NCBI GenBank assembly: GCA_963674865.2
Contig: CAXXYE010000007.1
Coordinates: 320,001-384,000 of the forward strand
Source of the DNA: Candidatus Hydrogenedentota bacterium
GTDB taxonomy: Bacteria; Hydrogenedentota; Hydrogenedentia; Hydrogenedentales; SLHB01
Reading direction: 5' to 3'
Length of the DNA: 64,000 nucleotides
Position 1 is the first letter of the stretch, and every line of letters starts with the position of its first letter. Of this stretch, positions 1 through 45,234 are shown one piece after another. A program made the position numbers and the translations under genes. Under the pieces are notes generated by a model, which saw only the letters and a program-made list of their open reading frames with translations, was not told where the DNA came from and made no database searches.

Positions 1-910
1 CTTTCTTATCCTTGCTGGTCGCCCTAGCGAGGCAAGCGTTGGCACTGGCTGGCAGACTGGGAATGGGTTCCAGGTCCTCATGCAGTTGGCAGTAGGTGAT
101 GTCCGCGGCGTCGGCAAAGGGGGCTTTACCGGTAAGAAGTTCGTAGGTGAGCATGCCCAGGCTGTAGATATCCGAGCGGGCGTCCGTCGGCTTGCCGAGG
201 CACTGCTCCGGGCTCATGTACAGGAGCGTGCCGCTGGTTGCCTCGCGGGAGTATTTGCTCATGCTCGTGCGGACGACCCGGGCGAGGCCAAAATCGGTGA
301 GCTTGACGACGCGGTCGCGGTGTACTAGGACGTTACCGGGCTTGAGGTCGCGGTGGACGATACCCTTGCCGTGGGCGTAATCCAACGCCGAGCAGATGGG
401 CTTGAGACACTTGAGAACCCACTCAAGGGGGAAACCGTCTTTCCCCTCTTGCTGCCGCTTGAAGAGGAGCTTGTCCAGCGACGCGCCTTCGATGAGTTCC
501 ATGGTGATGAACTGCGCCTCGGAACACTCCTGGAAATCGTACACGCGGCAGATGTTCTCGTGGGTGAGTTCGAGGGCGGTATTGACCTCATGTTTCAGGT
601 TGAGGAGGGCGCGCTCATCACGGCGGAGTTGCGGCGGGAGGGTCTTGAGGGCGATGTCTGCGCCCCGGGTGTGGTCGATGGCCTGATACACGACGCCCAT
701 GCCGCCCCGGCCCAATTCGCAGACGATCTCATAACGGCTGTGCATGAGACAAACGCCCCGCTGAAAGGTGGTTCCGGTGGCCGACGATGCCTGAGGGCCT
801 TCGAAGGTCTTCGAGTCGCCATCATCCGAAACCACGGGGAGTCTCGTGCCGCATTCGGGGCAGAACCGGGCATTTTCTGGGGCGTTCACACCGCACTCTT
901 GACAGACCAT
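1..910 (-). CDS. Zinc-ribbon + Ser/Thr protein kinase (runs off the left edge; not in the ORF track)
   Basis: Manual translation from ATG at 910: MVCQECGVNAPENARFCPECG (Zn ribbon), LGRGGMGVVY, IALK, HRDLKPGNVL, KLTDFGLA. Confidence 0.9.
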   Translation of the reverse strand, partial: MVCQECGVNAPENARFCPECGTRLPVVSDDGDSKTFEGPQASSATGTTFQRGVCLMHSRYEIVCELGRGGMGVVYQAIDHTRGADIALKTLPPQLRRDERALLNLKHEVNTALELTHENICRVYDFQECSEAQFITMELIEGASLDKLLFKRQQEGKDGFPLEWVLKCLKPICSALDYAHGKGIVHRDLKPGNVLVHRDRVVKLTDFGLARVVRTSMSKYSREATSGTLLYMSPEQCLGKPTDARSDIYSLGMLTYELLTGKAPFADAADITYCQLHEDLEPIPSLPASANACLARATSKDKK

Positions 911-920
911 CGCAATCCCC

Positions 921-3305
921 CTATTCCAGGCAGGCCTGGTCTTTCAGGCCCTCCTGGTGGAACGCGTCGACATGTATTGCCGTATCGCCAAGACGAACCA
1001 GCGTATCTTCCGCTCTGATCGGATGCGGCCTGCCCGGCTGAACGTTCTCATCGCCGACGAAGACGGGGGGTGTATCGTCCTTCGGGAGAATGAAGAAATA
1101 GCCATCCACATGAAGCAGGTAGGCATGGATGGGGGCGACGCCCTCGCCGGGAACGACGACGCACGCGCTGTCCGCCGAGCCGAGGGTCGCCCAGCCGGGA
1201 ATCAGAATGTATACCTCGCGGGTCTTGCTGTCATACGCCTCGAGCCCTTCGATGGGCTTTCCCGTGAGCGAGAACAGGCGGTCGAGCCGGTAACCTCCAT
1301 GGTTCCCCGGCCACTCGGGGAGATGCGGCGGGGTCTTCTTCATCGTGTTGAGTACTTCACGGGCGGTTGCGCGGGCCTCGTCTAGCCCCTCGAACCGGGT
1401 CGCGTTCGCGGCGTAGTGCAGGCCGAGGACGGGTTCATCCGATGCGAAAAGCTCGATGGCTATTTGCTCGCCGCGTCCCAGGCGGCACGTGTGCCCGCGG
1501 GTGAGCTTCTTGTTCTCGGTGACGCGCCCACGATTGCTCGCGGACAGGTGCTCGAAATGCAACGCGCCGTAGGCTGCCGGTTCGGGCACGGGCGTTACCT
1601 CCCACTGCATCTGGCTTATGGAACTCCGGCTGACGGGCTTGCCAGACGACCCGGACTGTTGTTGTTCCGTGGACTGCCGGTGAAGATACCGCTCGATCTC
1701 GACAAGCCGGACGTGGACCTTCTTGGCGGAACGCCCAAACCGCACGGCGCCGTAGCGCCCTTCCTGCTGCGAGAAGGTGGTCAGAAGGCAGTAATTGTGT
1801 TTGAGTCCTTCGTGTTCAAACCATATCCGCGCGCGGTGTGCGGGCGGCCAGTCCGGCGCGGCCGGCAGCGGCGGGGCAGGGGGCTCGACGGCTAGGGGCG
1901 CCTTTTGATCCATCCTGAAGCGAACAGGCTCGTAGGATAGTTCGCTGAGCTCGGTGAGTTTGTTGATGAATTCGTTGATCTTGTCCTGACTGAAGCCCTG
2001 CAAATTGACGCTCCACGCGCCCAAACCCACCACCGATTCCGCGGCTTCGACCGTGTCCGGCCCGAACCGGTTGATGATGGTCTGCTTGTCGGCGTCGCCC
2101 CGGAGCACGCGTATGCGCGAACTGCCGGTCAATAAGCATGCATGGCCCCCGGCCTCGTACTCAACAAGGAAGTCGATGACCCGCGTTCCGACCTTGTGGC
2201 CCGGCGGGCAGTACACCAGGGAGTGAAACTCGACCGGTAGCGCGTCGGCTATGCGGACCCCCGCGCCCGGGAAAGGGTCGATGTCGCAAGGTACGGCGCC
2301 TTCACCGCGCCCCAACGTGACCTCAAACCGGCGCAATTCGACGGGCTCCTCGCAGACTTTGTGGAACCTCACGGGCATGGCCACCTGTACGCCTTCCATG
2401 AAGGAGGGAACCGCCTTGATCTCTAGATGCAGGTGGATGCGCTCCCCGCACAGCGGACAGAAACGGTGCCGATCCCGCAGGAGGCCGCGGGGCGGAACGC
2501 AGTGGGGACAGAAGGCGACCGTTTCGCTTCGCGGCGGTTTAGGGATGGGCGCACGGCGGGGGAGATCGCTGCCGCAGGCGTGGCAATAGACTCCGCCCTC
2601 GATAAGCGTCGCGCCGCAGGCCGCGCAACTGACTCGTCCCTGGCGTTTTGGGTCGCCATTGGGCGCCCCCTGCGCGGCTGTCTCGTAACGCATCACCAAG
2701 GGAACAAAACGCAAGCCACACCGGCGCTTGAGGTCGTGGATATGAACGACCTGATACATGCAGACCTGCTGCTCGCCGTAGCTGTCAAGTTCGCACGGCT
2801 CGCCGAAGGGGAATTCGCCGTCCTCGCGCGCGAGGAATTCCTGGCGGCCCGGGTCAAAGGCGTGGACCTGCCGGTTACCCGGCGCGGCTATGCGAATGGG
2901 ATGCCTGCCCGCCATCGTGAAGCGCTTGTCCTCGAAGATAAAGGCCGCTGATACGCGCAGCTCGTACTCTCCCTGGACGGCATCGCTGATGCCCAGTTCC
3001 ACCTTCCGGTCGAGCACCAAACACTGGTCCTCTCCGGGATGCAAGGTCTGACCGGAGGTCTCGGGGTAAACGCCGGGCTCCAGCGTGCGCCCCCCCAACG
3101 ACACGTCGAACTTCTCGAGCTCTAACGGCGTCTCTGACGCGTTGATCAACCGGAACTCGACGAAGGTCGTAACGCCGATGAAATACTGCGCCAGGACGTT
3201 GACCTCGACGTAGAGCGGCGTGGGGGAGCCGTCCACCGTGCAGAGAGGGAACCGGTGGTTCAGCCGCTCGCCGCAGTTGGGACACCACGCCTGATGCGTG
3301 TCCAA
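921..3305 (-). CDS. Multi-zinc-ribbon protein with two C-terminal FHA-like domains
   Basis: CPNC, CAAC..CHAC, CPHC..CPLC motifs; VRFGRS..SISQMQ and TLGS..APIHAYL..VRLGDT resemble FHA beta-sandwiches. Confidence 0.7.
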   Translation of the reverse strand: MDTHQAWCPNCGERLNHRFPLCTVDGSPTPLYVEVNVLAQYFIGVTTFVEFRLINASETPLELEKFDVSLGGRTLEPGVYPETSGQTLHPGEDQCLVLDRKVELGISDAVQGEYELRVSAAFIFEDKRFTMAGRHPIRIAAPGNRQVHAFDPGRQEFLAREDGEFPFGEPCELDSYGEQQVCMYQVVHIHDLKRRCGLRFVPLVMRYETAAQGAPNGDPKRQGRVSCAACGATLIEGGVYCHACGSDLPRRAPIPKPPRSETVAFCPHCVPPRGLLRDRHRFCPLCGERIHLHLEIKAVPSFMEGVQVAMPVRFHKVCEEPVELRRFEVTLGRGEGAVPCDIDPFPGAGVRIADALPVEFHSLVYCPPGHKVGTRVIDFLVEYEAGGHACLLTGSSRIRVLRGDADKQTIINRFGPDTVEAAESVVGLGAWSVNLQGFSQDKINEFINKLTELSELSYEPVRFRMDQKAPLAVEPPAPPLPAAPDWPPAHRARIWFEHEGLKHNYCLLTTFSQQEGRYGAVRFGRSAKKVHVRLVEIERYLHRQSTEQQQSGSSGKPVSRSSISQMQWEVTPVPEPAAYGALHFEHLSASNRGRVTENKKLTRGHTCRLGRGEQIAIELFASDEPVLGLHYAANATRFEGLDEARATAREVLNTMKKTPPHLPEWPGNHGGYRLDRLFSLTGKPIEGLEAYDSKTREVYILIPGWATLGSADSACVVVPGEGVAPIHAYLLHVDGYFFILPKDDTPPVFVGDENVQPGRPHPIRAEDTLVRLGDTAIHVDAFHQEGLKDQACLE

Positions 3306-3325: not shown

Positions 3326-5218
3326 CTAGCCCTTCATATCATGCTTGCACCACGGGCAGAAGTTGGCGCTATGAGGCACCGGCCGGCCGCACTTAGGGCA
3401 AGGCGATTCGCCGGCATCCGCACCGCCCACCTGCTGCACGCCCCCCTGCCCGGCAACGACCACGGCGGACTGACCCCCACCTTTGGTGACGACCTCCGCT
3501 ATGTCCTTCAGGTCTCTTGCGCGGCGGTCGGCGTCGCCTCGAAGGGCCTCCTTCTCAGCCTTCTGGTCGGCCAGGCGTTCCTCGAGTTGACGTTTCTCGG
3601 CCTGGGAGACGGCCGCGGCCGTGGTGGCCTCGGAGGTGGCGATTTTGACGTTGCCTTCGATGGTCGCGAGCTGGACCTCGGCCTCTTTCTCCTTCTCAAA
3701 ACGCTTCAGGTCGAGTTCGAGCTTCTTCTCCTCGAGTTCAAGGCGTTTGATGGTCTGGAGATTCTCGACCTCCTGTCGTTCTACCCGCTCGAGCATGGCC
3801 ACCTGATGCTCACGGTCCGCGTGTTTGATGGCCTCCTCTTCGCGCGTGACCTTGAGTGCCTCCAGCCGGGCGGCGGTGTTACTCCTGGCCCGTTCGACAA
3901 TGAGTTCATATTCCTGGACGGCGTCGGCACGGCGTGTCTGCCGCTTCTGCTCGCTTTGCTGCCATTCGACCTTGAGGGTGTTTTCGGCGGACAGGCGTTC
4001 CTGCTCGCGGTCGAAGTCGGCCTGGGTGGCGTCCCGCTTGTTACGCGCCACAAGGATCGTCATGGCCACTTCGTTCTGATGGTCCACTTGGATCTTGTCG
4101 AGCGTTTGTTTGCGGGCGAGTTGCTCGTCCTGCTTCTGCTTGGTCCGCTCATCGCCGAGGTCCTCTAGCTCGTATTCGCGGAGTTCGTTCTTGATAACCA
4201 ACTCATGCCTCGCCTGGGCGACGGTTTCTACGCGTTCGGAGTCCCGTAGAACGGACTTGACGTCGTACTGCGTGTTCAGGTCATCGATCTTGTCCGCGAG
4301 GTCCTTGTCGGTAGCGACGGCATCGAGCTTACCCTGCGCGTTGAGTTCGGCAATGCGGCGGCGGATGGCGACCTTTTCGCCGAGATGGTCGGCGGCGTGG
4401 TTCCCCATGTAGGCCTCGCCCTTGTCTTGCTGCAACTGCTCGAAATGGTCGCCGCCGAAATCGACGAAGTTGAGCTGAAGCAGGTCGAGGCCGTAGCGGT
4501 CGAGCGTGACGGTCATGGCGCTCCGCAGGTCCGCTTCGAGTTCGTTGCGCCAGGTGAGGTTGCCGTACATCTCCTCCATGCTATGGGCGCAGACAAGCCC
4601 TCGGGTGACGTCGTGGAGTTCATTGCCGATGGTCGTCTCGAGAGTAGCGTAGGTAACGCGGCGCTTGTGGCCTTCAAAGAAGTGGCGCACGAAGGCGTCG
4701 TAGTCCTTGACGCGCAGCACCACCTGCACCGTCACGTCGAGTTCGGCCCCGTTGGCGTCGCGCAGGCCGCGGAACGTAGGCCGCAAAACCAGGTCGCCCG
4801 CGCTGACGAGGATGATCGAACTGGCCTTGCGCAGGCTGAGGATCTGGTCGAGCGTGTGGACGCCCCATTCCTTCTCCTCGGCGATTCGGCCCTGACGTTC
4901 GACGAGCCCGATGGTGCCCGGCTCGACAGTCACCCGGCGCGCGCGGAAACCTTCCACGTCGCCCGGGTTGACGCGTACCGCCAACTCCTCATCCTCGCGC
5001 ACCCATCGGTCGCCCATGATACGCGGCGGCTTCTCCCGCTCCATGTCGGCGCCGCAGTTCCAGCAAAACCGGCTGACGCGCCCCACGCGCTTGCCGCAGC
5101 CCGGGCAATTGCTCAAACTGTTGGGCCCGGCCCAGCCGCACCTCGAACAGAAATGGGCGGCCTTCTTGACGCGCGCGCCGCAATCAGGATTTGGACACGG
5201 ATCCGAGAAGAGTCCCAT
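3326..5218 (-). CDS. Double zinc ribbon + SPFH/band-7 domain + long coiled coil + C-terminal zinc ribbon
   Basis: ATG at 5218 preceded by AAAGGAG; CxxC pairs at both ends; VTVEPGTIGLV...LDRYGLDLLQLNF is SPFH-like; E/K/R/Q-rich coil. Confidence 0.8.
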   Translation of the reverse strand: MGLFSDPCPNPDCGARVKKAAHFCSRCGWAGPNSLSNCPGCGKRVGRVSRFCWNCGADMEREKPPRIMGDRWVREDEELAVRVNPGDVEGFRARRVTVEPGTIGLVERQGRIAEEKEWGVHTLDQILSLRKASSIILVSAGDLVLRPTFRGLRDANGAELDVTVQVVLRVKDYDAFVRHFFEGHKRRVTYATLETTIGNELHDVTRGLVCAHSMEEMYGNLTWRNELEADLRSAMTVTLDRYGLDLLQLNFVDFGGDHFEQLQQDKGEAYMGNHAADHLGEKVAIRRRIAELNAQGKLDAVATDKDLADKIDDLNTQYDVKSVLRDSERVETVAQARHELVIKNELREYELEDLGDERTKQKQDEQLARKQTLDKIQVDHQNEVAMTILVARNKRDATQADFDREQERLSAENTLKVEWQQSEQKRQTRRADAVQEYELIVERARSNTAARLEALKVTREEEAIKHADREHQVAMLERVERQEVENLQTIKRLELEEKKLELDLKRFEKEKEAEVQLATIEGNVKIATSEATTAAAVSQAEKRQLEERLADQKAEKEALRGDADRRARDLKDIAEVVTKGGGQSAVVVAGQGGVQQVGGADAGESPCPKCGRPVPHSANFCPWCKHDMKG

Positions 5219-5546: not shown

Positions 5547-6854
5547 ATGGACCTGAATGAGCGCCTCAAGAAAATGGAAGATGAACTCAAACGGAGGACG
5601 GAAGCCATCGACCGTGAGGCGCGCGCGAAGCTCGACGCCGTCGAGCAGAAGATCACCGCCACCGAGGAGGCCGTAGCCGGGCGCAAGGCCGATACGCCGC
5701 GGGGGCCACAGACGATAAGGCCCATCCACACGCCGGCGCCGCACGATTTGCGCATTGACATGAGCACGGCGCGCTCGCTGGATGTCCTCGACGACATTAT
5801 TGAAGAGGACTTCGAGTTGCTCCGATACCTGGGCGGGTCGCTCACGGCCTATCCCACCGTGTACTGCGAGACGGTTCGCGAATATCTCGAGCCCATCATT
5901 GCGGATATGCCGATGTCCGACGCGCAGCGCGAGGTCCTGCTGAATGAGGTGGCAGAGGCGGCGGAACACGGCGCGCCTATCCCCATCCTGACGAGCCTCG
6001 GCGTCCATATCCCCGGCGTGGGATGCTTCATCAACGGCTGGTTCATGGGCCAACTGGCGGGTGTGTCTCCAGGCGCCTACTTCCAAGCGCCGGAGGGGTT
6101 CGCCCGAATTGTGACCACGGCGTCCCATGAAAAGTGGGGCCACGGGTTCATCTCGGAGCTGACGGCCCTCGGCCGCGAGAAACAGTCCGTCCAGCTTGGC
6201 ATGCACCACCTCGCGGACCAGTTCGAGAGACGGACCGTCGATACGCCCGACCACGCCCGGCTCCGGGAGCAATGGGAAATCCTCTTCTACGCGTCCAACT
6301 ATGTCGAGGAGGGTTGCGCCACGTGGATCGAGCGCTACCTCGCCGAACGCGTGACCGAGCGCGATCCGCGCGGCCCCGCGCTGCTCGATCATGCGCCCAG
6401 TTTCACCGTCGAGAGTGTAGCGGACGCCCTCGACGGCGCCGGCCTGGGGCCGCTGGCCGAAGCGGTTGGCAGTGTCTTCAGTGATTTGAGCCAGCCTTTG
6501 GCCCCAGAGCGTTGGTTTGCTTTGGCGGCTGCTCTCAATGAGAGTGGCGAAGCCTTCACCCACGCCTGCGGTATGCCCTCGCCATACGTCGTCGGCTATC
6601 TCATCATGGACCGCGTGGCGCAGCGACAAGGCCCGAAGTGCGTGCCCTATGCCGTGGCCACGGCCTGCAACGTTGAATACGGCCTCAAAGACATCTCGAA
6701 CCATGACCTGCGCAATTACGTGGAAAATCACCCCGAACTGAATGTCAATGCACGCATGGCCGCGATCGTGTCCCTCGCCGAAGGGCCAAAGGACGACATC
6801 AAGGCCTTCCTCGCCCGTGTGCGGGACGAGATAGGCTTCGCACCGCCTGCGTGA
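5547..6854 (+). CDS. Putative zincin-like metallopeptidase with N-terminal coiled coil
   Basis: Start MDLNERLKKM after GAAGGGAA; ASHEKWGH followed by YVEEGCATWIE (third-ligand-type EEG). Confidence 0.6.
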   Translation: MDLNERLKKMEDELKRRTEAIDREARAKLDAVEQKITATEEAVAGRKADTPRGPQTIRPIHTPAPHDLRIDMSTARSLDVLDDIIEEDFELLRYLGGSLTAYPTVYCETVREYLEPIIADMPMSDAQREVLLNEVAEAAEHGAPIPILTSLGVHIPGVGCFINGWFMGQLAGVSPGAYFQAPEGFARIVTTASHEKWGHGFISELTALGREKQSVQLGMHHLADQFERRTVDTPDHARLREQWEILFYASNYVEEGCATWIERYLAERVTERDPRGPALLDHAPSFTVESVADALDGAGLGPLAEAVGSVFSDLSQPLAPERWFALAAALNESGEAFTHACGMPSPYVVGYLIMDRVAQRQGPKCVPYAVATACNVEYGLKDISNHDLRNYVENHPELNVNARMAAIVSLAEGPKDDIKAFLARVRDEIGFAPPA

Positions 6855-6936: not shown

Positions 6937-7181
6937 CGTGGTTAGTTTGATCAGTTCCTATGCCGCGACCAGGGCTTCGCCCTGGACCCACTAAGATTGC
7001 TCGGCGCTACGCGCCTTACAATCTTAAACTACACCCCCTACCGAAGTACCTTAACCAAGGGAAAAATCCCCGCGCTACGGGCCTATGCGCGGCCTATGCT
7101 GCGCGGCCGCGCCTTTGGCCCTCCGCGCTCCGCGGCTTACGCCGCGCAAGCAACAAGGCACCAAAGCAGTAGGCAGCAAAA
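6937..7181 (-). repeat. Conserved 3' trailer of DGR-target gene, copy 1 (three GC hairpins)
   Basis: Closely similar to 33432-33677; hairpins at 6969-6985, 7087-7112, 7131-7146. Confidence 0.9.
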
Positions 7182-7304
7182 CTACGGCCTGGCGAGGCGG
7201 AACCCCAAGAGGTCGCTCCGGGTGCCCGGGTCGCGCCCGGAACGAATCGCGGATCGGCAGCTCCTCGGGCTGCCGCTCCAGCAGCCACCGCGGGCCACCC
7301 GGTA
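7182..7304 (-). other. Putative DGR variable repeat (VR1) with invariant 3' tail
   Basis: Differences from VR2/VR3 fall mostly in positions 1-2 of NNC/NGG codons; 7182-7208 identical in all three. Confidence 0.85.
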
Positions 7305-10330: not shown

Positions 10331-10478
10331 CGTCCCGCTCCTTTCCACCGTCGTCGTTGCATCTGTTAAGTGAGGAGCAAGGCGTGTGCCGGGGCCCTTG
10401 TGACAAGGAGGTCACGGGCACGAGCGGCCGAGCTAGATTTGACCCGGAATGAGTCAAGGTCTTGAGGTGGGGCCCCGG

Positions 10479-11390: not shown

Positions 11391-11406
11391 GGGTGTGCTG
11401 TCCTCT

Positions 11407-11835
11407 CTATGGCATTTCCTTGACCTCGATATAGAAATACTCGGCGTCCGTGCCTGCCGAGTAGGTCCGGTATGTCTCGATACCGTTTGACGGCAGGAAT
11501 AGCGTCTGCCATTCGTTGGGTCCTTCGTTCGGTTTACGTGCCGGGCCAAAGTACTGCGTGCGCACCATAATCTGCTGGTCGTAATTCGTTCGGTTTCGGA
11601 ACAAGCACCAGACTTCCAAGGTATTGGTGGCGGTCCTGTCCGCCCCCGTGTTTTGGACGGCGATGCGTCTCTCAAGCCCTTTCGTCAGGAAGCCTACTCG
11701 GTTGAGCCTAGCCTCGGTGGCGGGCGTATCGACACGTGTTCCGACGGCTGTTCCTTCGGTTAGGTAGTAGCGCGTACAGCCCGGCACCGACAGCAAGAGA
11801 AGGATCAGTACTGAGATGACGAAAAGCTGTTTCAT
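11407..11835 (-). CDS. YcfL/DUF1425-like lipoprotein
   Basis: Lipobox VPGC; FRNRT..VRTQYF..EWQTLFLP pattern; 142 aa; next to an LpoB-like gene. Confidence 0.7.
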   Translation of the reverse strand: MKQLFVISVLILLLLSVPGCTRYYLTEGTAVGTRVDTPATEARLNRVGFLTKGLERRIAVQNTGADRTATNTLEVWCLFRNRTNYDQQIMVRTQYFGPARKPNEGPNEWQTLFLPSNGIETYRTYSAGTDAEYFYIEVKEMP

Positions 11836-11889
11836 TTTATGGCTCCTTGGCTCTAAAGGTCGATATCCCGCAAAGGGCCCGGAAGGCTC

Positions 11890-14126: not shown

Positions 14127-14134
14127 CTTCTTGC

Positions 14135-33677: not shown

Positions 33678-33800
33678 CTACGGCCTGGCGAGGCGGAACC
33701 CCAAGCGGCTGCGCCGGTAGCCCGGGACGACCCTGAAACGATTCGCGGAACGGCAGTACCACGGATTGAGGGACCAGCTGCCACCACGGAGCACCCGGTA
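33678..33800 (-). other. Putative DGR variable repeat (VR2)
   Basis: Same NNC/NGG variation pattern; invariant 3' tail. Confidence 0.85.
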
Positions 33801-36205: not shown

Positions 36206-36601
36206 TCATCCGATGGACACCCGTCGCAGCCCGTCAATCATCCGCGGGACGTTGAAGTTCATCAGGTAGCCACGTCTGAAACCCAGCAATCGCAAGTAGC
36301 TCAGGATTTGGGCCATGTGGAGTTCGTTCAACTCTGATACGCATTTCAACTCGAGCAGCAGACAGTTCTCGACGATCACGTCCGCCCGAAAACCAAGCCC
36401 CAGATCGTGTCCGCGGTACGTGACGGGGATCTCGACTTGTGTGGAAGCAGCGATCCCAAGGCCCTTCAATTCAAATGCCAGCGCTTTCTCGTATACGGAC
36501 TCCAGTAATCCAGGTCCGAGCTTCCGGTGCACCGTAATCGCCGCGCCAATAACACGTTCGCACAGGGCATCCGGGCAATCGAGTAGTCCCGCGTTGCTCA
36601 T
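36206..36601 (-). CDS. GxxExxY protein (PD-(D/E)xK nuclease superfamily)
   Basis: VHRKLGPGLLESVYEKAL, FRADVIVE, LELK, HMAQILSYL, GYLMNFN; 131 aa from ATG at 36601. Confidence 0.93.
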   Translation of the reverse strand: MSNAGLLDCPDALCERVIGAAITVHRKLGPGLLESVYEKALAFELKGLGIAASTQVEIPVTYRGHDLGLGFRADVIVENCLLLELKCVSELNELHMAQILSYLRLLGFRRGYLMNFNVPRMIDGLRRVSIG

Positions 36602-36672
36602 AGTTTCAAGATCCTTATGACCACGGAGATAAGGGCACGGAGAACACGGAGAGAGGCCCCTCTTTCTTCCTC

Positions 36673-36773
36673 CGTGGTTAACTTGATCAGTTCCTATGCC
36701 GCGCTTCTGGCCCTTCGCGCTTCGCGGCTTACGCCGCGTATGCCGCAAGGCCGCAAAGCAGTAAGCAGCAAAA
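36673..36773 (-). repeat. Conserved 3' trailer of DGR-target gene, copy 3 (internally deleted)
   Basis: Both ends match copies 1 and 2; lacks 145 bp; keeps hairpin 36723-36738. Confidence 0.88.
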
Positions 36774-36896
36774 CTACGGCCTGGCGAGGCGGAACCCCAA
36801 GCTGCAGTGCCAGCCGCCCGGGACGCTCCTGCTACGATTCGCGGAACGGCAGAGCCTCGGGGCGTCGAACCAGCTGCCACCGCGGAACACCCGGCG
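36774..36896 (-). other. Putative DGR variable repeat (VR3)
   Basis: Same NNC/NGG variation pattern; invariant 3' tail. Confidence 0.85.
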
Positions 36897-39641
36897 CGAG
36901 CCACTACTGGGGCCCGTGGGGTCGGTTACGGAACCCGAAGGATAGTCCCCGTACCAATCCTGGCACCACTCCCAAACGTTACCGTGCATATCGTAAAGCC
37001 CCCAAGCATTCGCGCTCTTCCCGCCCACGCTATGAGTCTTCCAATCGCTGTTGCCGCTATACCATCCGTACCTACTCAGTGTGGAAGACGAATCTCCAAA
37101 GCAATACGCCGTCGTACTACCCGCACGGCACGCGTACTCCCACTCCGCCTCCGTCGGTAACCGGAAGGTGCCCTGTCCTTTAGTATTCAACTTCTTGACG
37201 AAGGCCTGGCAGTCGTCCCAAGAAACTTGCTCCACAGGTAGGTCGTCGCCCTTGAAGTGCGACGGATTATTACCCATTACCGCCTTCCACTGCGCCTGGG
37301 TTACCTCGTACTTGCCCAGCCAGAAACCCTTCGTGAGCGCTACCCGGTGCTGGGTCTCATCATCATCCCGGTTTTCCTCGCCCGCCGGGCTCCCCATCGT
37401 GAAGTCCCCAGGCGGAATCCACACCAGTTCGAGCGTCACACCCCCACCAAGGTCGACGGATCGCGTTTGACCCGCCTTAGGCGCCTGAGCCAATAGCTTG
37501 CGCTCGGGCGTCACCTCGACGGCCTTGGCATATTGCCCCTCGGCCTTGCCATACTGCTCGGAGGCCGCGCTGTAGTCGGCGGCGGCGAAGGCCTCCTCAG
37601 CCGATGACCATGCCCGATCGCCTGCGCCCACTTCGTCCTCGGCATACTTCCGCTCGTCCGTGCCGATCTGTTTCTGCGACGCGAGCGCGTCTTTCCGGGC
37701 CGTGTCGGCGCTCTTCTTCGCTGCAGCGAGGCGCTCACCAGCGATCTTCGCAGCCTCTGCGTATTTCGCCTCTGACTGCTGGTACAGGTCCTTAGCCTTA
37801 TCGAAATCCGTCTCCTTGCCCGCTTCGGACATCACGCCGTCTGCGCTGGCCAGTTCGCGGGACGCATACTTCCTCACCGTATCCGTCTGGGCCTTGGCCC
37901 GCGCCCCCTCGGCCGCTTTGCGTGCCGCGGCTACAATCGCCTCGCCCTGCTGCGCCGTTTCCGAGGCCGCGAGCTTGAACAGGCCCGCCGCTTGCTTGAG
38001 CAACTCGGCGCCCTTCACGCGGTCCTCAGTCAGCAGCGCTTGTTCCTCGACCTCGATGGCCTGTTCGTAGCGCGTCTTGGCCCATGTCGCCCCGTCGAGG
38101 GCGTCGGCTGCTTCCTTTTCCTTCTCGAGGTCGGCCTTGGCCTTATCAAATGCCGCAATCTCAGCAGATAACCTCTCGCCTTGCGCCTGCGCCTGGGCGA
38201 ACAGCGCCTCCGCCTCCTGGTACTTCTCCACGGCGGCGTCAAATGCCCTCAGCCTGTCATGGGCTTCCCCGTCCTTCAGGGCCTCTGAGCCCGCTTTGAA
38301 CAGTTCCTCCGCATGTTGCCCCCCCCCGGCGTCCTTAGCGGCTTGCTGGGCCGTCACGGCAGCTACCTTCGCCGAGCTGGCGTCTGCGGCCGTGGCGGAA
38401 TCAGGGACTGTCCCAAGCGAGTCCGCCGAAGGCGGACGAGACGGGACTGTCCCTAATTCCCGCGAAGCAGCGGGGCCATCCCCTGCCATGTCCGTCTCGA
38501 TAGGCTGGGAGGGTCGCGGCCCTGCACGTCCGTCCGGCCCTGCGGGAGCGGGGCTCTCCCGACGCCCAATCAGGAGCACGGCCAAGGCGAAGACGACAAC
38601 AGCGGCAACCCCCAGAACCGCCCATTTTGTCTTGCCTGTTCGTTGCGCCGCCCTGTCGAGCGCGTCGCGTAGAGCGGCGGCGGATTCATAGCGATCCTCC
38701 GCGCGGGGTTGAAGGCAGCACATAACCACCGAGTCAAGGGACTTGGGAACACCGGCAGCCACACGCGAGGGCAGGCCCACCGCGCCCACCGGGATCTCTC
38801 CCGTGAGCATCTGGTACAGGACCACCCCCAGGCTGTAGATATCCGCGCGGGCGTCGAGTTCTCGGAGGTGGATGCTCTGCTCGGGGGCCTGGTAATAGGC
38901 CGTGCCCAGCGCCATGCTCGACTTCGTCAGCCGGCCCGGCGACATGAGTTTCGCCAGGCCGAAGTCCAGCACCTTGATGGCGCCGTCGGGCCGGATCATG
39001 ATGTTCTGCGGCTTGAGGTCGCGGTGGATGGTGTTCTGGTGAGCGTATTCAAGGGCGTCGCAGAGCTGGCGGGTGATATCGAGCGCCTCATCGACGGGCA
39101 GCCGCCCGCCGCGTTCCTGTAATACGCGATGCAGCGTCTTCCCTTCGACATACTCCATCGTGAAGAAGTAGAAACCCCGGCGCTTGTCCGCCGCCAGGTC
39201 GTGCACCCGCACGATGTTGTCATGGCTCAACTGCTGGCTGATGGCCACCTCGGAGCGGAAGCGTTGCCGGGCCGTTTCGCTCGCCAGTAGCGAGGGCAGC
39301 ATCACCTTGAGGGCTTTCTCCAGGCCCAGGTGGCGGTCCTTGACGTGGTAGACGGCACCCATGCCCCCGAACCCGAGCTGCTTCACCACCTCGAACCGTT
39401 TCGCCACCACATCGCCCGGCTTCAGCAGGACGGATTGCTGCTCACGAATCAGGTCCGGGTCGAGTTCACTCCCCTGTGGCAGGAACGGCTTGAGCTGATC
39501 CTCCGCCCACGTCGGCGAATCTCCCGCCGACACCATCCCCGGGACAAACTCCTCCCCCGGCGCGCCGGCTCCCTCGCCGTCGCCTTCCCACCGCGTGGGA
39601 TTGTCGCCTTGACTGCTTATTTCTGGCGGTTCATGTGCCAT
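36774..39641 (-). CDS. Ser/Thr kinase + TM + Ala-rich helical stalk + FGE/SUMF1 domain; putative DGR target 3
   Basis: Kinase nearly identical to 16173-18938; TM WAVLGVAAVVVFALAVLLIG; RLPTEAEWEYACRAG; ends GFRLARP. Confidence 0.93.
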   Translation of the reverse strand: MAHEPPEISSQGDNPTRWEGDGEGAGAPGEEFVPGMVSAGDSPTWAEDQLKPFLPQGSELDPDLIREQQSVLLKPGDVVAKRFEVVKQLGFGGMGAVYHVKDRHLGLEKALKVMLPSLLASETARQRFRSEVAISQQLSHDNIVRVHDLAADKRRGFYFFTMEYVEGKTLHRVLQERGGRLPVDEALDITRQLCDALEYAHQNTIHRDLKPQNIMIRPDGAIKVLDFGLAKLMSPGRLTKSSMALGTAYYQAPEQSIHLRELDARADIYSLGVVLYQMLTGEIPVGAVGLPSRVAAGVPKSLDSVVMCCLQPRAEDRYESAAALRDALDRAAQRTGKTKWAVLGVAAVVVFALAVLLIGRRESPAPAGPDGRAGPRPSQPIETDMAGDGPAASRELGTVPSRPPSADSLGTVPDSATAADASSAKVAAVTAQQAAKDAGGGQHAEELFKAGSEALKDGEAHDRLRAFDAAVEKYQEAEALFAQAQAQGERLSAEIAAFDKAKADLEKEKEAADALDGATWAKTRYEQAIEVEEQALLTEDRVKGAELLKQAAGLFKLAASETAQQGEAIVAAARKAAEGARAKAQTDTVRKYASRELASADGVMSEAGKETDFDKAKDLYQQSEAKYAEAAKIAGERLAAAKKSADTARKDALASQKQIGTDERKYAEDEVGAGDRAWSSAEEAFAAADYSAASEQYGKAEGQYAKAVEVTPERKLLAQAPKAGQTRSVDLGGGVTLELVWIPPGDFTMGSPAGEENRDDDETQHRVALTKGFWLGKYEVTQAQWKAVMGNNPSHFKGDDLPVEQVSWDDCQAFVKKLNTKGQGTFRLPTEAEWEYACRAGSTTAYCFGDSSSTLSRYGWYSGNSDWKTHSVGGKSANAWGLYDMHGNVWEWCQDWYGDYPSGSVTDPTGPSSGSRRVFRGGSWFDAPRLCRSANRSRSVPGGWHCSLGFRLARP

Positions 39642-39747
39642 TTCGGAAATTGCCCACGTATCTCTCCTTGACGACCGAACCGCACTCTGTCTGGGCCACA
39701 AACTCTAAGTAAGCGTCGCCGCTCTTGAGCAAGGACCTCGTTCTTAC

Positions 39748-40677
39748 TTAGGCAGCGTACGCCTCGCGTTCCCGGTTACGCTCAAGAGTACTGAGGACCA
39801 AGAGATTGTAGCTCCAAGCCAGCACAACGGCCAGCGTGAAGACGACCCCGAGCCAAACAGTCCCAAGCCGGAAGCCCATAAGACTCCAAGTTACCAGAGC
39901 GTCAACAGAAGTCAGTGCACCCAGGCAGGTGAAGTTAACGAAATTTGATTCGCGTTCAAGTTGCTCGCGCCAGAAAGGCGCCGTGCAGATGGGCAGCAAT
40001 ACCACAAAGAGAAGCCAACCGCTCAGCCGCAGACTTGCTCCTCCTCGCTTGCCAGGCTGCCGACCGATGTCCACGTGGGCGAAGACCATTCCGCTCTGGT
40101 TCTTGAAGGTACGGCGGAAAACGGGCACGGCCGAGCCTTTGCCGGCGACTTCGATAGCCGCCCGTAGGGAGGCGATGCCGTTCAGGGTCCTGAAGTCTTC
40201 AACAACGCCATAGACAACATAGTCCAGTCCGGCCTCTCGAGCGACTCCGAGTGCGGCGCCCGTCGTTGCCACGGGACGGCCCTTCCACGCGTCCGCCGCC
40301 GCCGCTTTGACGATCCCTAGCCGGGCGGCCTTCGCCGCAACCTGGTCTCGCAGCCCCGCCAGCATGGAATCCGTGACAAGTCTGCAATTGGTGCCCGATT
40401 GAAGTGCCGATTCGATGCGTGTGCGAAGGTGGTCGCCCTGGTCTCCCTGCAGCCGCTCGACCTTCACATACTTGCCCGACCAGGCGCTGTTCGCATAAGC
40501 CCCCAAAGCCTCGCCGACGTCTGCCGCGACGCGGTCGGCGGCCTCGGCGCGGGCGGGGTCGAGGGGCGATGTTGACGGCCGGATAATCAGGTATCCCTGC
40601 AACACCAGGAACAGTGCCAGCAGGATGGCCCCGTACTTGCCCGTTCCGAACTGAAGGAGTCTTGTGAGCCCTAGCAT
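39748..40677 (-). CDS. Membrane protein (N-terminal TM, soluble alpha/beta domain, three C-terminal TMs)
   Basis: Hydrophobic segments; GLDYVVYGVV resembles CsgG/TolB-N-like strands. Confidence 0.7.
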   Translation of the reverse strand: MLGLTRLLQFGTGKYGAILLALFLVLQGYLIIRPSTSPLDPARAEAADRVAADVGEALGAYANSAWSGKYVKVERLQGDQGDHLRTRIESALQSGTNCRLVTDSMLAGLRDQVAAKAARLGIVKAAAADAWKGRPVATTGAALGVAREAGLDYVVYGVVEDFRTLNGIASLRAAIEVAGKGSAVPVFRRTFKNQSGMVFAHVDIGRQPGKRGGASLRLSGWLLFVVLLPICTAPFWREQLERESNFVNFTCLGALTSVDALVTWSLMGFRLGTVWLGVVFTLAVVLAWSYNLLVLSTLERNREREAYAA

Positions 40678-41494: not shown

Positions 41495-42646
41495 CTATGC
41501 CGCCATATGCTCGTCGCGAAACTTCGCCAGCTTGGCCAGTTCCGCAGGGCGGATTGACGGCCGCACCCGCTGCAGCGCGGCGTCGAAGTCGGCCATGGTA
41601 ACAGGCTCCGGGTCGTTGACGGACCCGAAAGCTCCGTCGTGACGCTGGAGCGTGCGCTTCAGAGCCGCCATCTTTGCTTCGACGCAAAGGCTGTCGCGCT
41701 CCCCGGCGATGTCGGCGCCGGAGTAGCCTTCACAGCGGCCCGCTAGAGTCGCGTAGTCCAGACCTTCTACAGGCGTATTATCCATCGCCCGCTCGATCAT
41801 GTAAGCTCGAGCGTTTTGATCCGGCAGCCCCACGTAGACCAGCCGGCCAAAACGTCCCGGCCGTGTCGCCGCCTCGTCCATTAGCCACGGCCTGTTGGTC
41901 GCCCCTAGGAGAATGACGCAGTTCCGTGTGGGGTCCAGTCCGTTGATGAGTTGAAGTAATTGCGGTACAACCCGGGCCATAACGGATGAATTAGTCGCCG
42001 CCCGTTTGGGGAACAAGGCCTCCGCTTCGTCAAAGAAGATCACGGTGCGTGGGTGGCTCCTCGCCGCATCAAAGAGCTGGCCAAGCAATTGCTCCGTTTC
42101 CCCGAACCATTTGCTCAGCACGCGCTTCATTTCGACCGGGATGAACGCCGCGTCGACCTCGCCCGCGATGGCCCGCGCCATGAAGGTTTTGCCCGTTCCC
42201 GGGGGACCATACATCAGCACCCCCGAGCCAGGCCGAAGCCGGTACTCCGCGTACACGTCGGCGTGCTTAATGGGCAGGATGATGTGGCTGTGAATAACCT
42301 CCTTGACCTCATCCATGCCCGCCACGTCGTCTAAACGCGTGTCCGGCCGCTCCGTGGCAACCCACGCTCCGGGTTCCCGTGTGACCTCGCCCGTCCCGTC
42401 GCTCGTGACCCGGGTAGCCGGCTTACCCCCTCGGTTCCGGGTCAGTGCTTTGTCGCCTTGCGCCTCGTAACGCTTGGCAAGGCGGATGAGACTGCCCCGT
42501 GTGCGTCCCGCACTGTTCTGAGCCATGCACAGACTCATGCGGGAGGCGTTGAAGAGGTTGTAGGCCACCATGCGCCAGTCGTTGCGGTCCAACGCCGTTT
42601 TGACTTGGCCTTCAGCCAGCCGTCGTTCTCGTTCGTAGTCCATCAC
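41495..42646 (-). CDS. Single-ring AAA+ ATPase with MIT-like N-terminus (Vps4/CdvC-like candidate)
   Basis: GPPGTGKT, SKWFGETE, IFFDEAE, GATNRPW..RPGRF; ~70-aa helical N-terminus; C-terminal VTMADFDAALQRVRPS..KFRDEH. Confidence 0.85.
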   Translation of the reverse strand: MMDYERERRLAEGQVKTALDRNDWRMVAYNLFNASRMSLCMAQNSAGRTRGSLIRLAKRYEAQGDKALTRNRGGKPATRVTSDGTGEVTREPGAWVATERPDTRLDDVAGMDEVKEVIHSHIILPIKHADVYAEYRLRPGSGVLMYGPPGTGKTFMARAIAGEVDAAFIPVEMKRVLSKWFGETEQLLGQLFDAARSHPRTVIFFDEAEALFPKRAATNSSVMARVVPQLLQLINGLDPTRNCVILLGATNRPWLMDEAATRPGRFGRLVYVGLPDQNARAYMIERAMDNTPVEGLDYATLAGRCEGYSGADIAGERDSLCVEAKMAALKRTLQRHDGAFGSVNDPEPVTMADFDAALQRVRPSIRPAELAKLAKFRDEHMAA

Positions 42647-42655: not shown

Positions 42656-43291
42656 TTAAGCCAGCGCTTCATCCATCTTGCGCTCCAGGTCGGCGTCCAT
42701 ACGGGCCAAGCCGGCTTCCTGACCATCCGCGGCGTCGCCCTCGATAGCGCCTGCCGCCTCGTTCACCACTTGGGCGTAGGCGTCCTGTTCCTCCTCGTCA
42801 AGCGCCGCGCTCGACGCGGGCGCCGCCACATCGACCAAACTGGTCTCCGTCCATGGCTCGACCAGATCCTGGTTGCGCTGGGCAAGCTCCGTAAGCCGTT
42901 CGCGGACCTCATCCGGATCGACGCTTTCCCGGGCGAGCTCCTCGATTCGTGCCACGACCTCCATCCCGCGGACAAATTCGTCATAGTTGTCCTTTACCTG
43001 AACCTGTTCCAGCGTGTACTCCATATTGTTGACCGCCAGCGTGCGCGCAACGGCTTCCTTATCAATCTGCACGAGTTGCCGCACCATCTGTTTGGCCAGC
43101 CCGGGCTTGCCCTGACGCTCATAAACCACGGCTTTGCGCCTCATCTCCTCGGCCTTGGCCTGGCGCTTCGCCACACTGCGGCGTTCGCGACGGACCGCGG
43201 TCCTGGCCTTGGTAAGCGCCTGTCGGCGCCTTCGGGCGCGCTCGGCCTCCCGGCGGCGCCGCGACTTCAGTAGGTGGCTCCAAGTACTCAT
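42656..43291 (-). CDS. Snf7/ESCRT-III-like helical protein
   Basis: 211 aa; very basic N-half, acidic C-half; KAVVYERQGKPGLAKQMVRQLVQ; tail DADLERKMDEALA (MIM1-like). Confidence 0.7.
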   Translation of the reverse strand: MSTWSHLLKSRRRREAERARRRRQALTKARTAVRRERRSVAKRQAKAEEMRRKAVVYERQGKPGLAKQMVRQLVQIDKEAVARTLAVNNMEYTLEQVQVKDNYDEFVRGMEVVARIEELARESVDPDEVRERLTELAQRNQDLVEPWTETSLVDVAAPASSAALDEEEQDAYAQVVNEAAGAIEGDAADGQEAGLARMDADLERKMDEALA

Positions 43292-43315
43292 GTCCCTTAT
43301 CCTCCACATTGGCCG

Positions 43316-43981
43316 CTACGCAGTCTCCGCGTAGAGCCGGTTTTCAAGATCACTGACCACTTCGCTCCCTTTCACCGGCGACCGCTCTTGCTCATTGGGC
43401 CCGTCGTCCGTGTAGACCGCCGAGAGACGATTCTCCACTTCGGCCACACTCACTTCCTCCCCCGTGTCGAAGGCCCCGGCCGATTCAAGCTCGGCTGCCG
43501 CGTCAGAAGCACCTTCCTGTGCGACGACGGCTTCTTCCAGGTGGGCCGCGATGGCCTCGATCACCTCAGCGTCAACGCCGCGCTCGCCCATCGCCCTCGC
43601 CCTGCGTACTTGCTTGACGAGTTCCGTCAGCATCCGGCCGTTCGCGCTGTGGATCTTCGCCGCCTCGTCCTCCGACTCTAGTTCGCGCATGAACCCCTCG
43701 GCCTGGCGCAGCAGGTTCTGCCTAACTACCTTGATCTTCGCGTTTCTGGCCGCTTCGAGTAGCGCCTCGACCCGCTTCGCCAGGGGCTCAAGCCGCTCCA
43801 AGACCTCCTGCTGCCGCTTCCGGCTGCGTGCCCTCAGCACCACCAACTGCGCGTCGAGTGACTCCCAGTCGGCGGCGTAGTCAATCATCTGGGCCAGGTC
43901 AGCCAACCCGCTCTCAGGACGGACCCGAGCGGCGCGAGCCGCTTCCTTCAGGGCCTGCTTAAAGCGATAGAAAATGTCCAT
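43316..43981 (-). CDS. Second ESCRT-III/PspA-superfamily-like helical protein
   Basis: 221 aa coiled coil; amphipathic MDIFYRFKQAL start; acidic C-half; EVENRL and terminal SDLENRLYAETA. Confidence 0.6.
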   Translation of the reverse strand: MDIFYRFKQALKEAARAARVRPESGLADLAQMIDYAADWESLDAQLVVLRARSRKRQQEVLERLEPLAKRVEALLEAARNAKIKVVRQNLLRQAEGFMRELESEDEAAKIHSANGRMLTELVKQVRRARAMGERGVDAEVIEAIAAHLEEAVVAQEGASDAAAELESAGAFDTGEEVSVAEVENRLSAVYTDDGPNEQERSPVKGSEVVSDLENRLYAETA

Positions 43982-44004
43982 GAGACCTCTCCCCGAACCG
44001 TTGC

Positions 44005-45234
44005 TCAGTTGAAATCCAAAAGCCAGTCGTTGTTTTCCGGGTCCTCACACAGTACATAGGCCCGGTCATTGCGCTGAATCGCCCTGAACGCGTCGAGGAC
44101 GAGCCGCGGGGCAACGTCAAATTCCTTCGACACGGAGGCGGCACTCAAGGGGAACTGCTCCACGGGAAGCGCCTTTACATTCTCAACGCACGACTCGATT
44201 TTCTCGGCGTCACCTTGTGTGTCAAACAAACCCTCGACAAATCCGGCTAGATCCGACTGTTCGAGTCGATGGCGAATGTCCCAGCCGCCCTGGTTGGAGG
44301 GACTGACGAGGACTACGTTTGGAGGCAGTGGTATCGAGTCCGACCAGCCCGCCGGACTGAAAAGGATGTTGACCGCCTCCGAAGGGCATTTTGCAGAGAC
44401 ACCTTCTAGGGCCGCGTTGAGGCCCCCCAACCCGACTGGTTGAGCGATGAAGCCATGCTCCAGCATCTCTTGCAGTGGCGCATAACTGGAAGCTGCAATA
44501 TAGAGCCGTTTGGGCCGCCGGAAGGGGCTCCTGCGGCCTTCTCTTGGGCGCACCTCAAAAAGTCGGCCTCGGTTGGCGGGAAGCTCCTTTGACCGTTCCT
44601 TTAATGCGTCCCCCAGCGGATGCTTCAGAAGGAAGTCTCGCGGCACGTCGGCCGTGTGCCACGTATCGAGCTCAATCACCTTGGCACGCTTGAAAGAGCG
44701 GCCCGTATGCGATTGGGGGCCGCCTCGCAGTGAACCGTCAAGAAACCCGTGAAACAGGGATTCCAAATGGCGGGCCTGGTTAAGTGTTACCGCACCGTCG
44801 GGCTGGCGTTCAGGAAGTCGGCACAGCCGCTCTTGACACTCGAGGCAGTACTTGCGAGCCGATACAGTGTTCGCACTGCGCGGCAAGGGCTTGCCGCACC
44901 CCGCGCACGATGCTACCGTTTTTTTCTCGGGCCCTAGGCAGGCTATCGCCGACCGCCTCCCCAGATGTAAATCTTGTCGGGGGACCGTGGCATTTGAGTG
45001 GCAAGAGCACTGCCTTTGGCCCGAATGCCAGCACTTGTAGCAGATGAACTCGCCGCATACGCTGCACGAACCACGCCGCGAAAGGCCGCTAACAATGACT
45101 TCGTGACACGCCGCGCAGACCTTAGCCTCTTGCAAGCCGGCGTGGAGTCCGTCTCCGCATTCTCGACGGTCTTTGAGCGGGTATGGGATGCCTGGTGCTA
45201 AGCCCAACCGTGTCTGTCTCGTTATGGTGTCCAT
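44005..45234 (-). CDS. Cys-rich zinc-finger protein with alpha/beta core and C-terminal winged-helix-like domain
   Basis: CAAC..CSVC..CYKC..CSCH and CAGC..CLEC; LSAASVSKEFDVAPRLVLDAFRAI plus beta hairpin. Confidence 0.6.
   Translation of the reverse strand: MDTITRQTRLGLAPGIPYPLKDRRECGDGLHAGLQEAKVCAACHEVIVSGLSRRGSCSVCGEFICYKCWHSGQRQCSCHSNATVPRQDLHLGRRSAIACLGPEKKTVASCAGCGKPLPRSANTVSARKYCLECQERLCRLPERQPDGAVTLNQARHLESLFHGFLDGSLRGGPQSHTGRSFKRAKVIELDTWHTADVPRDFLLKHPLGDALKERSKELPANRGRLFEVRPREGRRSPFRRPKRLYIAASSYAPLQEMLEHGFIAQPVGLGGLNAALEGVSAKCPSEAVNILFSPAGWSDSIPLPPNVVLVSPSNQGGWDIRHRLEQSDLAGFVEGLFDTQGDAEKIESCVENVKALPVEQFPLSAASVSKEFDVAPRLVLDAFRAIQRNDRAYVLCEDPENNDWLLDFN

Follow-up and report, generated by a model that had tools for sequence, protein, structure and literature searches.

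An operon pairing Snf7-type ESCRT-III and Vps4-like ATPase genes, linked to receptor kinases in a genomic island of a Hydrogenedentota bacterium

The window analysed here is a stretch of 64,000 nucleotides (C7:320001-384000) from the genome of a Candidatus Hydrogenedentota bacterium, labelled G000 (5.79 Mb, 11 contigs, 97.5% complete); the other G labels denote genomes and the L labels the loci that were examined. It covers most of an island of about 52 kb which runs from C7:313073, directly after dnaA, to window position 45261, with 6.9 kb beyond the left edge of the window. The island includes an operon of four genes, separated by gaps of 12-24 nt, which encode a zinc-finger protein, a helical protein of 221 aa, a Snf7-like protein of 211 aa and an ATPase of 382 aa, and which resembles the ESCRT (endosomal sorting complexes that are required for transport) systems. 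Genes are named below by their first coordinate in the window (Table 1). A sequence-only reading had described a 45-kb island of signalling and envelope genes; its content largely holds, but not its extent. The part beyond the window comprises the remainder of one kinase-CLec gene and a second gene of this type, together with genes for a histidine kinase and a sigma-54 regulator. At the island start (L003:11167-13073, i.e., C7:311167-313073), no dnaN-sized plus-strand gene follows dnaA.

Twenty-seven genes of the island are on the minus strand, to which the sequence-only reading had assigned nearly all genes, and a single real gene, which it had overlooked, is on the plus strand (5547-6854). 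The seven Hanks kinases that it counted in positions 1-45234 are recovered with Pfam (Pkinase), all seven with intact HRDxKPxN and DFG/DWG motifs, and so are the WD40, PASTA (four copies), LamG (two copies) and SLT domains. The SPFH protein of the window has no Band_7 match, but three of five orthologues do (best E 2.7e-9), in agreement with the initial assignment. Two of the three presumed FHA-type proteins are retained (28532 and 921); for the third, 22161, the FHA assignment is not supported, as it has no Pfam match and no homologue in the 134 other genomes of the phylum sample. As for the ESCRT-like operon, the Snf7 match of 42656 and the AAA and Vps4_C matches of 41495 agree with the proposal, whereas 43316 could not be linked to ESCRT-III. 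With regard to the many lipoproteins, a regular expression found a lipobox in 5 of the 26 island genes that were scanned and that start inside the window, and three more (9440, 10479 and 14135) resemble lipoproteins on visual inspection only. The scanned island genes include no recognisable phosphatase, as stated before, and two PP2C genes are on another contig (C9). The island holds 8 of the 23 kinase loci of the genome and 7 of its 24 FGE/CLec loci, far above chance in both cases.

The Snf7-like protein 42656 matches Snf7 (PF03357) with an E-value of 1.2e-5, scoring 25.5 bits in one scan and 28.4 bits in another (cut-off 27.3); a homologue from a divergent subtype, in G030, passes the cut-off with 34 bits. 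PF04012 (PspA_IM30) matches only a separate pspA gene of the genome, not 42656. The AlphaFold model (pLDDT 80) contains helices at residues 2-59, 63-98, 103-122, 126-139 and 166-210, and hence the predicted protein has the layout of ESCRT-III: a long helical hairpin, short helices, a linker and a C-terminal helix. A Foldseek search with this model ranks CdvB2 first (probability 0.95, E 0.11), and the top 12 hits are all ESCRT-III chains; VIA also ranks CdvB2 first (Z 9.8, rmsd 3.6, 150 residues aligned), with CNOT3 and BAR domains tied. The profile of the family gave no match against PDB sequences. A profile search of the full library returns only 9 clusters at E<=0.001, which indicates that the close Snf7-like family is small. 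We take the conserved N-terminus of 42656 to be amphipathic and its C-terminal helix to be MIM-like; both 42656 and 43316 presumably end in a motif that resembles MIM1.

The helical partner 43316 is likely a second ESCRT-III subunit, even though homology to Snf7 was not detected. Its family aligns with the gene found at the same position in the second subtype with a probability of 61% (hhalign), and an Atlas search returned no usable match. For the operon head, 44005, a search of its profile against PDB sequences found nothing.

In all type-I loci long enough to include it, the ATPase gene comes directly downstream of the Snf7-like gene. The model of the protein shows three N-terminal helices, a disordered linker, a single intact AAA module and a C-terminal Vps4_C helix. 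Vps4_C is matched by 59 of 60 relatives at E<=1, but it also matches some Cdc48 proteins and is hence not specific. In the Atlas, MIT clusters rank second and third among the top leads for the N-terminus (0.77-0.78, below match level), and PF04212 is not among the best 25 of the 95 families matched by the relatives. Katanin is the best match of the last 111 residues. Meiotic-clade AAA proteins have an arginine-finger motif without the RPGR spacing, a feature that the window ATPase does not share; a regular expression finds an RPGR-type motif in 44 of the 60 alignment members, the other 16 being unclassified, in part through mis-anchoring. A tree of 59 rows places the Snf7-linked ATPases together with TPR-linked bacterial ones and separates them from Cdc48 (D1/D2) and FtsH (98/84); this tree contained no true Vps4 or CdvC, and its long branches make the sister placement uncertain. 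Full-length ATPases of about 40% identity include one named Planctomycetota. Viral contigs and plasmids gave no close relative (best 40-41%), and the three plasmid regions examined have no annotated ESCRT-III gene, two of them being TPR-linked. The 2024 survey of ESCRT systems (PMC10936438) uses an N-terminal MIT domain (i) and the presence of ESCRT genes nearby (ii) as criteria for Vps4; the ATPase gene of the island has such neighbours, and for MIT it has the leads given above. Thus, the 41495 protein is called Vps4-like in its layout and probable role, with a core that is at least as Cdc48-like.

Co-occurrence was examined in 135 genomes of the phylum, in which most relatives are fragmented and kin are not independent. 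The Snf7-like, SPFH, zinc-ribbon-FHA and histidine kinase genes (E<=1e-40 for the latter) are present in exactly the same five genomes (G000, G101, G131, G076 and G077), from 5 genera and 2 families; the chance figure of 8e-8 ignores kinship and is not relied on. This was the check that the sequence-only reading had proposed. The membrane protein 39748 has strong orthologues in these five genomes and weak homologues in G030, G078 and at a second G077 site (7/135 in total); its distant homologues directly follow the ATPase gene in divergent subtypes. The PEGA gene occurs in three genomes, all ESCRT-positive, and in none of the other 130. A co-inherited functional core is therefore supported. 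Its members are the Snf7-type ESCRT-III protein, the Vps4-like ATPase, the SPFH scaffold, the zinc-ribbon-FHA protein, the membrane protein and the two-component regulator. The FHA domains of 921 are weak and degenerate (E down to 2e-8 in orthologues), and the last one has no canonical phosphothreonine residues. The profile of the SPFH protein found nothing among PDB sequences.

Genes that are far apart in this island are neighbours elsewhere: PEGA-SLT-SPFH and SPFH-DZR-histidine kinase-response regulator in G101, ATPase-histidine kinase-response regulator in G076. In G101, one contig carries the orthologue of the plus-strand gene, a kinase gene, the ESCRT operon, 39748, 40702 and another kinase gene. 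A second contig ends with PEGA, SLT and the start of SPFH, and a third begins inside SPFH and continues with DZR and the two-component pair, which suggests that the two contigs broken inside SPFH join. The operon of G076 is followed by the two-component pair, and two kinase-CLec genes flank this locus. In G131, a GxxExxY gene precedes the histidine kinase gene. Among the matches listed for metagenome loci, the Snf7-like gene is followed by the ATPase gene in 9 cases out of 9; some of these loci add kinases, 39748/40702 or the PEGA pair. Of the 7 loci that span at least 10 kb, 5 have a Hanks kinase in the vicinity of the ESCRT genes (G101, G076, L023, L025 and G078, but not G077 and L029).

The lipoprotein 14135, on the contrary, occurs in 8 other genomes but in none of the 4 other ESCRT genomes, and 10479 in one other genome. 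The lipoprotein block, the PASTA gene and 22161 are add-ons. The sequence-only reading, which proposed one integrated system, had held that modules unlinked in related genomes would indicate a simple insertion hotspot; such unlinking is observed for the accessory part but not for the core. A functional unit is supported for the co-inherited core, but not for the lipoprotein block and 22161, which are independent, in an island whose gene order is shuffled among relatives and whose core is split between three contigs in G077. What emerges is a kinase-linked ESCRT-III/Vps4-like system plus accessory modules, rather than one 45-kb machine.

The Snf7-like gene, the ATPase gene and the membrane protein gene are kept in this order in divergent subtypes (G030, G078 and G199). 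Subtype II (G030 and G078) consists of a helical gene, the Snf7-like gene, an ATPase of about 40% identity and a 39748-like gene, with kinases, FHA, CHAT or papain-like genes as neighbours. The Sumerlaeota genome G199 has two more Snf7-like/ATPase pairs, one of which is followed by a membrane protein and a zinc-finger-FHA gene. Another Sumerlaeota genome, G135, has the first three genes of the operon and no SPFH or ATPase match, its contig ending inside the Snf7-like gene. The subtypes at L131 (G030:C140), L133 (G078:C100), and L132 and L135 (G199) stand beside papain-like, CHAT, subtilase, FHA and TPR-kinase genes.

All eight kinases of the island have intact catalytic motifs. Six of the eight have one transmembrane (TM) helix after the kinase domain, based on simple hydropathy, and therefore the CLec or WD40 part is predicted to be outside. 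The kinase part of 16173 shares 80-82% DNA identity with two paralogues.

Four kinase-CLec genes (7182, 33678, 36774 and a fourth just beyond the window edge) have their last ~210 coding bases in common, and bear the marks of targets of a diversity-generating retroelement (DGR). An invariant 3' end resembling an IMH (initiation of mutagenic homing) sequence and conserved downstream sequence are present in all four. Over the 31 codons that precede the invariant end, variable sites at codon positions 1/2/3 number 16/13/4, compared to 5/4/7 over the 30 codons upstream of them and 0/0/0 over the final 9. The templates used for comparison are heterologous, being found beside DGR reverse transcriptases (RTs) in relatives, and the comparison window was chosen after viewing the alignment. 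In the G101 template, A is present at 27 of the 33 variable and at 3 of the 60 constant sites (p 2e-14); the corresponding figures for the G077 template are 22/33 and 5/60. The positive control, a comparison of the G077 template with two of its own targets, shows differences at A alone (19/19 and 24/24). The earlier suggestion of diversified receptors is thus supported by a DGR-type signature in these four genes. The cassettes of the relatives are arranged as target-Avd-RT-template at L075 (G077:C41) and as HRDC-like gene-RT-template at L079 (G101:C400).

Searched against the DNA of the phylum, the variable repeat has only short matches (69-92%) outside G000. Contigs from three runs of one study, among the matches listed on this repeat, include the reference and three variants at a depth of 8.8-11.1; these four sequences of similar depth are read as the four paralogues. 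A low-depth target-like contig is also among them. Against the G101 template, the matches listed for the same runs are DGR-like pieces of other organisms, none tied to G000. In G076, the ends of the flanking kinase-CLec genes have 18/28 and 19/37 of their mismatches with foreign templates at A, which is only suggestive. The DGR-ESCRT link is not general.

The core could be a membrane-remodelling system that phosphorylation triggers and receptor kinases feed; a retroelement likely diversified the outer tips of these kinases. We estimate the probability of this reading at about 0.5. Gene content, co-occurrence and the DGR signature are observed, and folds and topology are predicted; we infer the ligand, the interactions and the outcome as follows. 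A periplasmic CLec or WD40 domain would bind a foreign ligand, after which the cytoplasmic kinase would phosphorylate its partners and the FHA proteins would read the phosphorylation mark. The SPFH protein may mark the membrane patch on which the Snf7-like protein, probably with its 43316 partner, would polymerise at the inner membrane. The ATPase would grip the C-terminal helices via its MIT-like bundle and recycle the filament, so that a damaged or invaded membrane patch would be sealed or shed.

Several observations weigh against this proposal. Regarding the ESCRT components, the Z of 9.8 obtained with 42656 falls in a range that is common for helical bundles. No Snf7 match was seen among 10 members of the 43316 family (best 25 of 26 families), and hhalign gives a probability of 0.5% for this family against the Snf7-like family. 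The core structure of the ATPase is closer to p97/Cdc48 (Z 29.9) than to Vps4 (Z 27.1), its profile scores are 210 bits for CDC48 versus 177.5 for CdvC (cut-off 650), and its arginine-finger motif is RPGRF. Regarding linkage, G077 has the operon, the SPFH-DZR pair and the two-component pair on three contigs, the first two with unrelated flanks, and no kinase within 60 kb around the operon. Neither SPFH nor DZR was matched in G030 and G078 at the cut-offs used, and the co-occurrence may reflect one mobile block inherited together. Regarding diversification, blastn and a genome-wide scan allowing A mismatches found no template repeat in G000, and tblastn with the proteins of relatives found no DGR RT, Avd or HRDC orthologue. 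The four genes are therefore orphan or fossil targets, unless the element sits in an assembly gap. The two RTs of G000 (699 and 516 aa) match DGR RTs at ~23% or not at all; they are large non-DGR enzymes, probably of defence type (L001:223-2322 and L002:760-2310). The complete DGR of G077 is on another contig than its ESCRT operon, the FGE gene that follows this operon is not variable-repeat-like, and no FGE motif was found in the ESCRT loci of G101, L023 and L025.

An alternative is a self-contained envelope-repair core that is switched on by the sigma-54 two-component pair, the kinases, CLec proteins and lipoproteins being bystanders in an insertion hotspot. This is possible, though unlikely. 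The histidine kinase tracks the core in 5/5 genomes and the kinase-CLec genes do not, the lipoprotein block and 22161 are independent of the core, an integrase-primase element abuts the island, and domains have been shuffled among the kinase paralogues. However, the invariant core includes an FHA-domain gene, which needs a Ser/Thr kinase input, and kinases are near the operon in most of the long loci, a divergent subtype included.

The phosphorylation-triggered system could also be taken further, into an adaptive-immunity-like circuit in which DGR-hypermutated receptor kinases would recognise new invaders at the envelope, and FHA/SPFH adaptors would trigger an ESCRT-III/Vps4 machine of archaeal/eukaryotic type that excises or seals the membrane patch; this extension is doubtful. 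It is still less probable that the variable sensors detect phage or predators and that ESCRT-like filaments then rupture or depolarise the membrane of their own cell. The patchy distribution (5/135) is consistent with such immune suicide, as are the CHAT, papain-like, caspase-like and subtilase genes beside the subtype-II loci and the proposal that DGR-diversified CLec sensors are antigen sensors of cell-death conflict systems (PMC10907252). Yet PADLOC gave only generic kinase and AAA matches and a borderline BrxB, with 8 of 12 proteins left without any match, the core has no recognised nuclease, TIR or pore-forming effector, and a recycling ATPase would fit a reversible process better.

Archaeal ESCRT in cells that divide with FtsZ has been proposed to form vesicles (PMC10936438). 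A vesicle or contact structure for cell-cell recognition or export, with CLec domains as sensors of kin or partners and the SLT protein opening the wall, is nevertheless very improbable here: in relatives, the core is linked with SLT, PEGA and PelC/CsgG-like exported proteins, but SLT and PEGA occur in only some ESCRT genomes and no cargo or channel was identified. Lastly, it is hardly credible that the ESCRT reading is a resemblance only, with generic coiled coils for helical proteins and a Cdc48-like unfoldase for the ATPase, as the low Snf7 score (25.5 bits), the family profile without PDB match and the Cdc48-like core could suggest, given CdvB2 as the first hit of two fold searches, the ESCRT-III chains that fill the Foldseek top 12, the subtype-II homologue above the Snf7 cut-off and the separation of these ATPases from Cdc48 D1/D2 and FtsH in the tree.

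Makarova et al. have described euryarchaeal ESCRT systems ('Main', Halo_FHA and Meth_adaptin clades; PMC10936438) whose loci carry, as here, ESCRT-III, a Vps4-type ATPase, Ser/Thr kinases, FHA proteins and SPFH-coiled coil-zinc ribbon proteins, in a host that has FtsZ; the SPFH-coiled coil-zinc ribbon feature is shared with the Meth_adaptin type. In contrast, the present host is a bacterium, the kinases end in periplasmic CLec or WD40 domains with DGR marks, and the core has a sigma-54 two-component pair and a PelC/CsgG-like membrane protein. Adaptin appendage (Ig plus TBP) proteins and ProX are further features of the Meth_adaptin type, and no match to ProX, the adaptin family or a phosphatase was found among the island genes scanned. 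The likeness to CdvB/CdvC of TACK archaea and to eukaryotic CHMP/Snf7-VPS4 is in CdvB2 as the best structural match of 42656 and in an ATPase with a predicted three-helix bundle, one AAA module and a C-terminal helix. Unlike the Cdv system, there is no CdvA here, and the ATPase differs by its low CdvC score and its RPGR motif. A role as cell-division machinery was considered and rejected as unlikely: FtsZ is present (FtsZ_C), and only 5/135 genomes carry the system.

In bacteria, Ravi et al. (PMC11237479) have described some PspA/Snf7 members beside AAA+ ATPases, PspA with Band-7, and operons of Vps4-like ATPases in which snf7 is displaced by a TPR-6TM gene. The island shares with these PspA/Vipp1 and TPR-linked systems the ESCRT-III superfamily, the SPFH partner and the AAA+ ATPase, and the TPR-linked ATPases are the sister group in the tree, with the uncertainty given above; unlike PspA/Vipp1, 42656 matches Snf7. 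Kinase-CLec targets of DGRs are already known (Vallota-Eastman et al., PMC7517822; Dore et al., PMC10907252) and resemble those of the island in architecture, in the C-terminal variable repeat with first- and second-position variation and in the use of several targets per template. Here, however, no template or RT is in the assembly, and the genes are linked to an ESCRT operon instead of STAND, MoxR/vWA or TIR genes.

According to a 2025 review, a Vps4-like ATPase in control of ESCRT-III "appears absent in bacteria" (PMC7619361); the 2024 survey finds ESCRT homologues "not in bacteria" (PMC10936438). Here, a Snf7/CdvB-type gene is paired with an MIT-like single-AAA ATPase in a conserved operon of Hydrogenedentota and Sumerlaeota, with at least two subtypes. 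Our literature search, largely outside subscription journals, found no bacterial operon of Snf7 plus a Vps4-like ATPase with SPFH, FHA and kinases, although survey supplements may list bacterial sequences. It gave no link between ESCRT and DGR targets either, and the word "ESCRT" occurs 0 times in the portion of PMC10907252 used, in line with the initial remark that no description of the combination was known. With four small soluble proteins, the system lends itself to direct tests in vitro. Should the link to the kinases hold, the system would offer a minimal model for ESCRT action that is triggered by a signal and needs no ubiquitin, and DGR-diversified sensors would have a new output. A Cdc48-like core with a Vps4-like layout also bears on the origin of Vps4.

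Table 1. Features of the island and of the adjoining element, in window coordinates.
Position	Strand	Feature	Remarks
1-910	-	Zinc-ribbon-Hanks kinase-FGE/CLec, 5' part	Whole gene C7:319204-320910, 568 aa, no TM predicted
921-3305	-	Double zinc-ribbon (DZR) protein, C-terminal FHA-like domains	Core, 5/135 genomes
3326-5215	-	Zinc-ribbon-SPFH/Band 7-coiled coil-zinc-ribbon protein	Core, 5/135 genomes
5547-6854	+	Only plus-strand gene, HExxGH...EEG motif, orthologues 52-55%	No Pfam match
6937-7181	-	Non-coding 3' stretch common to the four DGR-marked kinase genes	Hairpin signal weak (z -1.75)
7182-9317	-	Kinase-TM-CLec receptor	Variable repeat and invariant 27-nt end at 7182-7301
9440-10348	-	Stand-alone exported FGE/CLec protein, outside the variable-repeat family	
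10479-15856	-	Five-gene lipoprotein block including an LpoB-like gene	Accessory
16173-18938	-	Kinase-TM-CLec	CLec unrelated to the variable-repeat family
19150-22053	-	PASTA x4, InlB-B x2, LamG x2 lipoprotein, recent internal duplications	
22161-23345	-	Singleton without Pfam match	
23437-24441	-	SLT lytic transglycosylase	Lies after the PEGA gene in G101 and G131 and before SPFH in G101
25018-28491	-	Kinase-TM-WD40 receptor	
28532-29980	-	Cytoplasmic FHA-kinase, canonical FHA motifs (E 5e-14)	
30095-33280	-	Exported pair: PEGA/FlgT_N lipoprotein and upstream exported protein without assignment	
33678-35732	-	Kinase-TM-CLec receptor	Variable repeat 33678-33797
36206-36603	-	GxxExxY (PDDEXK_3) gene	At the point where the 36774 gene loses the common 3' non-coding stretch
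36774-39701	-	Kinase-TM-helical stalk-CLec receptor	Variable repeat 36774-36893
39748-40677	-	Core membrane protein: N-terminal TM, PelC/CsgG-like soluble domain (weak, E 0.001), C-terminal TM helices	
40702-41379	-	Exported protein, C-terminal TM anchor, paired with 39748 in relatives	
41495-42646	-	Single-domain AAA+ ATPase, Vps4-like layout	Pfam AAA and Vps4_C
42656-43309 (likely start 43291)	-	Snf7/CdvB-type ESCRT-III protein	Snf7 match and fold searches
43316-43981	-	Conserved 221-aa helical partner, C-terminal LE(N/K/R)(R/K)LY motif	
44005-45261	-	Operon head, FYVE-like zinc finger (weak, E 0.005) and C-terminal domains without assignment	
45525-52039		Integrase, primase-like 939-aa gene, TubC_N and HTH genes	Satellite- or ICE (integrative and conjugative element)-like element directly upstream of the ESCRT operon

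Among the other genes of the island, the motif of the plus-strand gene is presumably that of a zinc metallopeptidase; its orthologue in G101 adjoins the kinase upstream of the ESCRT operon. The PEGA gene is linked to ESCRT genes in two metagenome loci. Two duplications are seen in the PASTA/LamG gene (19162-20190 and 20778-21515), one 99% identical with a spacing of 729 nt, the other 80% identical with a spacing of 438 nt. A 31-nt junction near 36206-36700 is identical to one behind the 33678 gene.

The GC content of the island equals that of the genome (0.614) and thus gives no compositional sign of recent foreign origin. No convincing flanking repeat that could mark attachment sites was found for the island or the integrase element; an 18-nt match falls in a genome-wide repeat family. 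A tandem repeat of 217 nt (52165-52600, 96% identical) belongs to a family of palindromic repeats that is present in many copies on C2 and C9. A direct repeat of 99 nt (91%) at 61853-61951 and 63468-63566 brackets a DUF2400 gene, like a duplicated gene end. The tRNA-Gly called by ARAGORN at 53650-53736 is inside an oxidoreductase gene, on the opposite strand, and is probably false. Elsewhere in the genome, 15 tRNA genes are found within 4 kb (G000:C11:57958-61864), an array typical of mobile elements.

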